Below, piece after piece: positions 6,035-47,338 of a DNA stretch of 64,000 nt. The stretch is from Escherichia phage phiC120. Made by a program: the position numbers and the translations under genes. Positions within the stretch are counted from its first letter, which is position 1; each line of letters begins with the position of its first letter. The notes below the pieces were generated by a model, which saw only the letters and a list, made by a program, of their open reading frames with translations, ran no database searches and was not told the DNA's origin. The stretch lies in sequence record KY703222; one strand, written 5' to 3'.

Positions 6035-6060
6035 GCAAAAAAGGAACTCCGAAGAGTTCC
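6035..6060 (-). terminator. Intrinsic terminator (UUCG-loop hairpin plus U-tract)
   Basis: Minus strand GGAACUC-UUCG-GAGUUCC followed by UUUUUU, between the small ORF and gene 47. Confidence 0.7.
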
Positions 6061-7690: not shown

Positions 7691-7918
7691 TCATTCTAAT
7701 TCCTTCGCTGCAAATAAGGCAGCATCCAACGAATCAAATTGGTCAACGAAATCAATATTCAACGCATCGTCAACCGTAGCATATAACCACCATTGTTTGA
7801 ATTCGTATTCTAGAATAAATCCAGGACCTTCAATCTGAGGAAGACCTAGGCTATTTGTACCAACTTCGTAACCAGCTAGACGCAGGTCATTAATCAAAGT
7901 TTCTGTTAATACGCTCAT
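7691..7918 (-). CDS. Hypothetical protein
   Basis: 75-aa ORF. Confidence 0.45.
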   Translation of the reverse strand: MSVLTETLINDLRLAGYEVGTNSLGLPQIEGPGFILEYEFKQWWLYATVDDALNIDFVDQFDSLDAALFAAKELE

Positions 7919-8247
7919 TTTGCCGCCTTAACAATTTTCAGGTCAATGAATTTTTTCTTACGTTGATTTTTCATACGACGGATAGTCTTTTCAGAGATTT
8001 CATGTTTCTGATAAGCTTTAGATTCAACACCAAATGCAGCAACGTCAAATTCAGAAAGAATATATTGTACTAGAATTTCACGAATAGAATTACGTCCAAT
8101 TTTCTGGTCGTGTTTTTGCATGATTTCATAAAGACGGAATTCCCACGCATCAAGAACTTGAGGAGTAACAATATTGCCGGATTCCAGAAGAGCAACAACT
8201 TTATCGAAAGCGAAAGAATTAACTACGTTTTTGATTTTAGTAGACAT
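7915..8247 (-). CDS. Hypothetical protein (start at internal Met with GAGGA SD)
   Basis: ORF 7915..8286; the first ATG sits inside a -10 TATAAT box, so the second Met (MSTKIKN...) is preferred. Confidence 0.45.
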   Translation of the reverse strand: MSTKIKNVVNSFAFDKVVALLESGNIVTPQVLDAWEFRLYEIMQKHDQKIGRNSIREILVQYILSEFDVAAFGVESKAYQKHEISEKTIRRMKNQRKKKFIDLKIVKAAK

Positions 8248-8284
8248 ATTATTTTCCTCGGTTATTTTATTATCCAACGAGAGC

Positions 8285-8313
8285 ATTATACTCTGCTCTC
8301 AAGAGTCTGTACA
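8285..8313 (-). promoter_or_regulatory. Early-type promoter (TGTACA-N17-TATAAT), copy 1 of a duplicated 55-bp cassette
   Basis: Near-identical 55-bp block at 8262..8316 and 38572..38625; palindrome GAGAGCA...GCTCTC flanks the -10. Confidence 0.5.
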
Positions 8314-8554
8314 CTATTTTTTAAGCATGAAAAGCAAGTAATTTGTATCACGTGGAGTAATATCAACACCCATATCAAAGATGCCTTTATAGATTGGGTA
8401 TTTGTTTTCGGTTGTATCGAAGCTGAAACTATTTCCATCACATCTAACAGTAATAGCATCTGTTAAAATGTCATACTCAATCCTAACAATTGAATCCCCA
8501 ATTTTAACGTCGAGGTGTTTTTTTGAATTTGATAAAATCTAATTCTTCGGCCAT
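8314..8554 (-). pseudogene. Small gene interrupted by a frameshift at an A7 run (intact product about 79 aa)
   Basis: ATG 8554 with GAGGA SD; frame stops after 16 codons and the ORF continues in a second frame after the T7/A7 run at 8518..8524; removing one A gives MAEELDFIKFKKHLDVKIGDSIVRIEYD...NYLLFMLKK. Confidence 0.4.
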
Positions 8555-8617
8555 GATATTTTCCTCATTTTAAGACGGCAGGAAGATAATAACATGTCTT
8601 CCTATCGTTGTACATTA

Positions 8618-9506: not shown

Positions 9507-9685
9507 GTCTTAATTTCCTTCGCAATTGAACAGAAGATACCACGGTCACAAAGCATTTCACCAATTTCTGGATATTTGATTGAACGGTACCAAACATCCA
9601 GGCTTGAAACTTTGGTTATCTGTACTGCATTACCGTTGACCGAATAGTACTGGTCAACCTTAATTTCTTTATCTTCAATTGTCAT
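9503..9685 (-). CDS. Hypothetical protein (start at internal Met)
   Basis: ORF 9503..9724; MTIEDKEIK start preceded by GAGGAA SD and an early-type promoter. Confidence 0.45.
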   Translation of the reverse strand: MTIEDKEIKVDQYYSVNGNAVQITKVSSLDVWYRSIKYPEIGEMLCDRGIFCSIAKEIKT

Positions 9686-9714
9686 TTTATTTTCCTCTAT
9701 AGTAGATGGTGTTA

Positions 9715-9743: not shown

Positions 9744-9852
9744 TGTTTTATGAAAATATTTTTTGATTTGAGAGGGGCACAAGGAGATAGTGAAGTGAAG
9801 ATTCCAATGGATTATATTAGAAATGAGATAAAGAAGACCAGGCGGCACCTGG

Positions 9853-38549: not shown

Positions 38550-38591
38550 ATTATTACCTTTCAATTGGTGGTTTTATTATCCAACGAGAGC

Positions 38592-40658: not shown

Positions 40659-41123
40659 TTATTTGATTTGTTTAGCAGACCAAATGCGGTCTTTAATAAG
40701 TTTTTGGATATCTTCAACATACTCAAGGCTATGAGCGTGAGGATTATCTTTGAAGCTATGTGCTCGTGCCAGTTTCTGGCCTTCAGTTTTGATTACCAAA
40801 AGTTCTTTAAGAATTGCTTCATACTTAGAAATAATTCCTTTGGCGATATTTTTTTCTTGAGCTGCTTTAGGGCCCGCTTTTGGTGCTGGTGCTTTACCTG
40901 TAGCTTTCTGGAACAATTCACCTGATGCAGCTAGGCTTTTAAAAACTCGGCTAACAGTATTAGCATTAGTAAAACCTTCGGCTTTAAAATCTCTAATAAA
41001 ACGGAAACGTTCTTCATCAGAGGCGTCTTTGTAAGAATATTTACCTGCTTGAATTGCTGCAATCGCAGCGGCTTTTACATCTGAACTAGATTGTTCAGTC
41101 AAAAATTCTGCATATGATTTCAT
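40659..41123 (-). CDS. Internal protein with capsid targeting sequence (IP-like)
   Basis: N-terminus MKSYAEFLTE; 154 aa. Confidence 0.65.
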   Translation of the reverse strand: MKSYAEFLTEQSSSDVKAAAIAAIQAGKYSYKDASDEERFRFIRDFKAEGFTNANTVSRVFKSLAASGELFQKATGKAPAPKAGPKAAQEKNIAKGIISKYEAILKELLVIKTEGQKLARAHSFKDNPHAHSLEYVEDIQKLIKDRIWSAKQIK

Positions 41124-46888: not shown

Positions 46889-47338
46889 TTACCCCTTGTA
46901 TCCGAGTTTCCTAAGTCCGTCTTCGGTTAGAACTCGAAATTTTATATTTCTCTTTTCAGCAACAGCTGAAGCAGCTTTCCATTTGTCACAGTTCACAGAC
47001 CAGGTGTATATTTCATTCATATAACGTTTCTTTGCTGCGGTCGTAAGATTTGCAGGCTTAATAGGTGGCTGAGTTTCTTTCTTTGGTTTTATTTCTACAA
47101 AGAACTCTTGACCTGATGCATCTTTCATCCATATATCCATAAAGTATCGACGTTTTTTACCTTCTGCGTTACAGAAATATGGAATTACTGCTGTTTCGCT
47201 GCCCCATGCAATAATTTCTGGATTTTTATCTAACCATTCGAAAAAGAATTTTTCCCAGTTTGAACGATACGTTATTTTGGTATGGTCTCCACGGTATTTT
47301 TTTAAATTTTTTGGGACCCATTTACCAGAGTAGGCCAT
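46889..47338 (-). CDS. 4: Head completion protein gp4
   Basis: ORF 46889..47482; start at internal Met ([11 protein letters not shown]...) gives about 149 aa and frees the divergent late-promoter region. Confidence 0.7.

Follow-up and report, generated by a model that had tools for sequence, protein, structure and literature searches.

A frameshifted allele of the RB69ORF075c-family gene in Escherichia phage phiC120 at an A tract of recurrently variable length

The DNA analysed here (the window) is a 64,000-nucleotide stretch of Escherichia phage phiC120 (KY703222). It represents an RB69/APCEc01-like Mosigvirus of the T4 family, with best matches that are 96–98% identical over 25 kb, and no record identical to the window was found in the phage collection. 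The gene under study is a small minus-strand gene that is interrupted at a homopolymer, and the following features were identified at and around it.

8314..8554, minus strand: frameshifted gene of the RB69ORF075c family (phrog_11314); 79 aa if the tract were A6; syntenic with a single 240-nt CDS in relatives
8554-8552, minus strand: start codon ATG, as read from the sequence
8504..8554, minus strand: truncated frame as encoded; 16 sense codons (MAEELDFIKFKKTPRR), followed by TAA at 8506-8504
8518..8524, minus strand: A7 homopolymer (T7 on the plus strand), the frameshift site; Lys11-Lys12 codons AAA AAA plus one extra A
8314..8517, minus strand: downstream frame of 67 codons (HLDVKIG...FMLKK) and TAG at 8316-8314, without a usable start codon
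8317..8322, minus strand: second A6 run of the gene (Lys78-Lys79, directly 5' of the stop); A5 in two other copies (L025 and P0001)
8562..8566, minus strand: GAGGA ribosome binding site, 7 nt upstream of the ATG, within a GAGGAAAAT-N4-ATG motif
8586..8614, minus strand: sigma-70-type promoter-like site TGTACA-17-TATTAT (with TG), a candidate from the consensus scan alone
8581..8602, minus strand: hairpin in the sequence, GGAAGA (8602-8597)/TCTTCC (8586-8581), overlapping the TGTACA-17-TATTAT site
8285..8313, minus strand: promoter-like site TGTACA-17-TATAAT of the next gene, 55.2, from the consensus scan; downstream edge of the gene module

A preliminary description had reported a minus-strand ORF that is preceded by GAGGA, starts at 8554 and ends after 16 codons, with another frame remaining open past the A7 run; both are present. 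Frame analysis of the minus strand showed that the second frame is open from 8538, just after a TAG at 8541–8539, to the TAG at 8316–8314, and that the overlap of the two frames is confined to 8538–8507, around the A7 run. Because ATG, GTG, and TTG codons are absent from the second frame until its last 19 codons, it does not constitute a separate gene. Deletion of one A from the run joins the frames, and the resulting product, proposed earlier to be about 79 aa, is exactly 79 aa long. The probability of an open stretch of 68 codons in such AT-rich DNA is ~0.01 according to a rough estimate from base composition; considered together with the family match of the fused product and the single annotated CDS of relatives, the stretch is not a chance occurrence. 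The proposal of a small early gene with a +1 frameshift at an A run is also supported, the gene having an early-type promoter-like site of its own. A near-identical initiation motif, consisting of GAGGAAAAT, four bases, and ATG, is found on the minus strand at 8245–8259 (gene 55.2), 8552–8566 (the frameshifted gene), and 9683–9697 (gene 55.6).

The repaired product matches phrog_11314, a family annotated as being of unknown function, along its entire length (residues 1–79 of 79, E = 2.6e-46) and is 94–99% identical to CDSs in >90 phage records; a Pfam search with the 79-aa product gave no match. Its orthologue is RB69ORF075c, and the gene occupies the syntenic position between the genes for gp55.3 (DUF5490) and gp55.2 (DUF7570). 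The orthologue is annotated as a single 240-nt CDS in ESh27, ST0, APCEc01, S143_2, WFbE185, and RB69. The window itself contains no uninterrupted 79-aa frame (stop after 16 codons), and its gene appears to be a disrupted allele of the RB69ORF075c/phrog_11314 family rather than a functional member. This is a very narrow family, as 1.8 billion representative proteins searched with a profile yielded only a sister allele with about 57–58% identity, found in JS09-type phages, as well as fragments and one distant relative of 77 aa.

Among 25 distinct intact copies of the main allele, 17 synonymous and 13 nonsynonymous codon variants were found, giving a per-site nonsynonymous/synonymous ratio of 0.18, and dN/dS between the two allele classes was ~0.26. 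These ratios (0.18–0.26) directly show the constraint on the intact gene, which is a real coding gene under purifying selection. The gene is cleanly absent in OP870146.1, MN850579.1, and OR352945.1, in which the stop codon of 55.3 is directly followed by the 55.2 promoter. Because the gene is under purifying selection yet wholly absent in some relatives, the RB69ORF075c-family gene is functional but dispensable, its dispensability being observed directly in these three genomes. The AlphaFold model of the 79-aa product is poor (pLDDT 59.6, 4 sequences), and no functional conclusion was drawn from it. The secondary structure of this model places the first strand at residue 11, and the 16-residue product would lack the whole folded part if this placement holds.

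The gene behaves as a cassette, resembling the PeSL-bounded ORF modules described in the hyperplastic regions of T4-type phages (PMC2839356, PMC4122927), as it has a promoter-like site and a hairpin upstream (8581–8614) and a similar promoter-like site downstream (8285–8313). In common with those modules, it is a small ORF of unknown function with an early-promoter-like site and a stem-loop, it is present or absent among close relatives, and the promoter elements at its two edges are similar, although the local match to TTTACW-N17-TAYWAT was judged by eye only. In the three genomes that lack the whole gene, the junction lies at the flanking promoter-like elements. PeSL modules, in contrast, concern the gain and loss of whole genes and not frameshifts. 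Other differences among relatives were observed in this neighbourhood. At ~7613 in the window, between 55.1 (7691–7918) and gene 55, ~184 nt are absent compared with WFbE185 and RB69, and most of RB69ORF072c (DUF7200, 89 aa) is gone; likewise, no 89-aa gene is called at this position in ESh27 or in L013, L019, and L022. RB69 (NC_004928.1) has two bases that the window and WFbE185 lack, at the equivalents of 8603 and 8635; gp55.3 is thereby lengthened to 93 aa and overlaps ORF075c. In the other relatives examined, gp55.3 is 66 aa, and the 93-aa form of RB69 reflects either a change specific to RB69 or a long-standing sequencing error. In gene 55.2 of S143_2 (MZ189261.1), an A7 run is found where A6 is present elsewhere, and the CDS is 101 aa instead of 110, which is either a frameshift allele or an error. 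Upstream of gene 47, a T6 run of the window (6037–6042, minus strand) follows CGGAGTTCC and resembles a terminator tail; in close relatives, its length ranges from 6 to 13 T.

All four aligned relatives contain A6 where the window contains A7, and this is the sole length difference within the gene. The difference between A6 and A7, as well as the resulting truncation, is thus a direct observation. Intact copies were not counted by tblastn coverage, since even a record with A7 would reach 85% coverage of the query; a 59-nt probe that spans the run and was designed around known SNPs was used instead. None of the 83 deposited phage genomes matching this probe contains A7, each match being 58 of 59 with a single gap. 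A6 was also found in two IMG/VR contigs, one metagenome contig, and ~40 further distinct contigs fetched via the flanking proteins, whereas scans of the ecoli_genomes and GTDB genome sets gave no match. In the sister allele, Lys11-Lys12 are likewise encoded by AAA AAA, and no length variant was present among 32 deposited copies. The preliminary description had proposed comparison with orthologues of related phages as a check and had considered that two separate short ORFs in those phages would contradict it; they carry a single intact A6 ORF instead. The closest gene haplotype, in GCA_037574385.1 (L022), contains A6 and encodes a protein identical to the repaired 79 aa of the window. Between the nearest A6 haplotype and the window, only one other site differs from 8563 down to 8179. 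An A5 tract in ECCR664 (OL631257.1) was rejected as an artefact, as this record contains 7 homopolymer undercalls in 2.8 kb.

Out-of-frame lengths of the same tract were identified in several public assemblies. A7 is present in a 55-kb contig of SRR17833564 (L013), in a 27-kb contig of SRR31127846 (L015), and in ERR2241986 and ERR10432879 (contigs L067 and L069), and A10 is present in SRR21022561 (L068). A7 was also found in SRR31127829 (L065), but this contig does not differ from L015 over the core, and the two were counted as one. All of these other out-of-frame tract alleles come from automated read-archive (Logan) assemblies, and A7 is present in no deposited isolate genome; a literature search on the SRA accessions carrying A7 or A10 yielded nothing. 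L013 and L015 were reached as contigs that encode the exact 55.3 protein of the window and have no gene call at the locus. Four out-of-frame contigs were reached via mis-called proteins, and because this route is biased, the counts given here do not represent allele frequencies. The proteins in question (P0003, P0006, P0008, and P0009, of 94–98 aa, from L065, L069, L067, and L068, respectively) were rejected as gene-caller artefacts of the Logan-derived collection in which TAG is read as Q, the DNA having ordinary stop codons.

The backgrounds of the carriers vary, with E3 or Q3, R37 or S37, GAGGA or GAGTA, and different upstream hairpin loops. When 47 distinct haplotypes of an 859-nt core were compared, the nearest neighbour of each of the 5 distinct A7 haplotypes was an A6 sequence, and A10 resides on one further haplotype that is also nearest to an A6 copy. 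A single origin of A7, suggested by an association with the R37 haplotype, is weakened by the occurrence of A7 and A10 on S37 backgrounds. The recurrence of the out-of-frame tract, as A7 or A10 on different haplotypes in five independent datasets, is a direct observation. No coding homopolymer indel other than that at the tract separates L013, L015, L065, and L067 from their nearest relatives (over 1.7–6.2 kb). L069 shows the tract change and one extra intergenic A3/A4 difference, and the +4 at the tract is the only indel in the near-identical part of L068. One and the same run among ~11 runs of 6 or more has changed each time, in clean contigs, a pattern that reads as the signature of real mutation filtered by selection, since random sequencing error would strike any of the ~11 runs. 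Frameshifts at the remaining runs affect genes that are intolerant of them. Other disrupting changes were also found in this gene. In SRR14060471, AAA is shortened by one base to AA near codon 51, which gives a 94-aa out-of-frame tail, and in L025 and P0001 the shortening of the terminal Lys78-Lys79 run from A6 to A5 results in a product of 86 aa. In phiE142, the stop codon of the same gene has been lost, giving 95 aa.

In every out-of-frame tract copy, the downstream frame is fully intact, and the frameshift events therefore appear to be young. This fits a very recent or reversible mutation and would also fit an artefact, i.e. a phage that truly contains A6 and a consensus overcalled by one base at this single site. 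On several platforms, consensus errors most commonly arise from miscalled homopolymers, and the absence of A7 from all 83 deposited genomes matching the site, the identical protein encoded with A6 in the closest haplotype, and the undecayed downstream frame are all in keeping with such an error. ECCR664, a deposited relative, shows that errors of this kind enter databases: seven of its homopolymer runs in 2.8 kb are each one base short, most of its genes are uncalled, and its annotation lists only 100 features for 134 kb. This pattern is what systematic homopolymer error looks like.

The window does not display this pattern. When the whole window was aligned with its syntenic 64-kb counterparts in WFbE185 and RB69, 7 indels private to the window relative to both relatives were listed, of which only the one at 8524 lies clearly inside a conserved CDS in ~64 kb. 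Five of the others lie between annotated genes, and the remaining one, at 38572, is upstream of the e.6 start according to the RB69 annotation yet inside the longer e.6 call of WFbE185. The window thus contains one gene-breaking indel in ~64 kb compared with 7 undercalls in 2.8 kb of ECCR664. It contains 62 runs of 6 or more, of which three are 7 bases long and none is longer; besides the A7 tract, the 7-base runs (T7 at 40849–40855 and 47297–47303) are located in intact ORFs and show no indel compared with the relatives that align there. Systematic homopolymer error in the assembly, which the preliminary description had offered as one explanation, is not supported, because just one private indel clearly interrupts a conserved CDS and no discrepancy from the relatives is seen at the other 7-base runs. 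The claim of two such events in one window was not reproduced either. The indel census against the two relatives, a split-hit tblastn search in which all ORFs of WFbE185 and RB69 were translated against the window, and a scan of ±1 edits at every homopolymer revealed no second gene-breaking homopolymer event, and the split-hit search detected no other window-private split of a real gene; the edit scan was uninformative, as it mostly fused ordinary adjacent or overlapping genes. The nearest candidate for a second event is an intergenic T6 run at 9759–9764, located 74 nt ahead of the 55.6 start; this run is T5 in most relatives and T6 also in L019. It may be what was counted earlier as the first event, although no gene is broken there.

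An error confined to this single site is also unlikely. Apart from the tract, no private indel lies clearly in a conserved CDS despite the 62 runs of 6 or more in ~64 kb, the two other 7-base runs agree with the relatives, and the identical change is found in several clean, independent assemblies on different haplotypes, which suggests that a real A7 allele circulates. A site-specific change in an otherwise clean contig may thus serve as a simple test for separating real homopolymer alleles from bad assemblies. What stands of the earlier interpretation is the real slippage-prone site, as the same tract is A7 or A10 in five independent datasets on different haplotypes; the systematic error and the second event do not.

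The gene could also be an old pseudogene that lost its function long ago in this lineage, the frameshift being its first visible lesion. Such decay would agree with the absence of the gene from some relatives and with the existence of several other disrupting alleles, but it is highly improbable: the 67 downstream codons are intact and encode a protein identical to that of functional copies, the nearest A6 haplotype differs at a single other site between 8563 and 8179, and the ribosome binding site, start codon, and promoter-like site are all intact. Given the intact codons, the near-identical A6 haplotype, and the intact start signals, the lesion appears to be young.

Programmed recoding, in which the 79-aa protein would be produced from the A7 allele through a ribosomal shift of +1 (or −2) or through transcriptional slippage, was also considered. 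A runs decoded by tRNA-Lys are intrinsically slippery, the overlap of the two frames is restricted to the surroundings of the run, and an A10 allele exists, a length at which RNA polymerase slippage is generally known to be appreciable. Like the known programmed sites (dnaX A AAA AAG and the G/GT site of phage tail chaperones), the locus combines an A-rich slippery stretch with a second frame that continues after it. In those systems, the two-frame layout is conserved among orthologues, whereas here it is a rare exception, the orthologues, including the allele with 58% identity, being single-frame with A6. The shift needed here is +1 or −2 rather than −1, and there is no stimulatory element; inspection of the surroundings of the run revealed no recognized slippery motif for +1 or −2 with a stimulator. 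The A7 copies are otherwise identical to A6 copies and have no co-evolved stimulator, and in the zero frame the run is followed by ACA in the A site, an ordinary codon that is neither a stop nor rare. Efficient RNA polymerase slippage in bacteria usually needs a homopolymer of roughly 9 or more; the run of the window is 7, and only that of L068 reaches 10. Recoding as the purpose of this arrangement is hardly credible, and at most some low-level leakage might occur, with the A10 allele being the likelier source.

Taken together, these results suggest that a small accessory early gene is probably present in the window as a null allele, generated by a real replication-slippage event that added one A to A6 at a recurrent hotspot. 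The extra A is most likely present in the phage DNA rather than a consensus error, slippage is most likely the mechanism, and the product is most likely absent. Slipped-strand mispairing by the phage DNA polymerase (Streisinger slippage, the classical cause of T4 frameshift hotspots) would have added one A at the Lys11-Lys12 A6, translation from the strong start at 8554 would end after 16 residues, ahead of the predicted folded part, and no translation would be expected of the 67 downstream codons, which lack a start codon. The gene would be useful yet dispensable, so that null alleles survive and out-of-frame alleles persist, and the tract would act as a recurrent mutational hotspot in natural Mosigvirus populations. 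The locus is similar to the Streisinger-type A-run hotspots of T4 (rII and lysozyme): a T4-family phage has a +1 change in a run of six A's, the affected gene is dispensable under the growth conditions, and the change recurs at one site, although slippage is inferred here. The T4 hotspots were defined by laboratory genetics, whereas the present one is seen as natural variation among public assemblies, in a gene of unknown function. The appropriate annotation of the window gene would be a frameshifted allele (pseudogene) of the RB69ORF075c family, neither two ORFs nor a recoding site.

Homopolymers of 6 or more in T2, T4, and T6 have been reported to undergo elevated, reversible ±1 frameshifts and were termed contingency loci, and an engineered A6-to-A7 change in T4 rIIA reverted ~10,000-fold more frequently than a point mutant, according to a preprint (Gomez, Barrick and Waters 2025, bioRxiv 10.1101/2025.10.21.683753). 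The present tract resembles the loci described there (e.g. agt and rIIA) in several respects: the phages belong to the same subfamily, an A6 lies in an ORF of the hypothetical or accessory type, A7 produces the OFF state as in the engineered rIIA mutant, and tract-length variants are present. The loci of T2, T4, and T6 differ in being defined by within-population read variation and selection experiments, whereas the differences observed here are fixed between assemblies. In the parts of the preprint consulted, there is no mention of Mosigvirus or of the RB69ORF075c-family gene. Two features of a contingency locus were found here, namely an ORF-internal homopolymer of 6 or more that is in frame as A6 and out of frame as A7 or A10, and a length polymorphism with A7 on 5 haplotypes and A10 on one more, on similar backgrounds. 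Frequent forward and back mutation at the tract is compatible with the intact downstream frames, which do not prove it. It is possible, though somewhat doubtful, that the Lys11-Lys12 A tract is a genuine phage contingency locus that switches reversibly between ON (A6) and OFF (A7 and A10) in Mosigvirus populations and is kept because the protein helps in some hosts and harms in others, e.g. as a trigger or target of host defence.

The gene family is known but uncharacterized and the mutational hotspot is of a known kind; the recurrent natural A6/A7/A10 polymorphism is the most interesting aspect, as a candidate natural contingency locus. A natural A6 tract that has been repeatedly expanded in an accessory gene of T4-family phages fits, and would modestly extend, the claim that homopolymers of T-even phages are hypermutable switches. 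If it is a contingency locus, the public data would show for the first time how such a switch marks natural populations of a T4-family phage, with recurrent OFF alleles on many haplotypes, undecayed downstream frames, and a gene under purifying selection. The locus would hint at an uncharacterized phage–host interaction if certain hosts select for loss of the gene.
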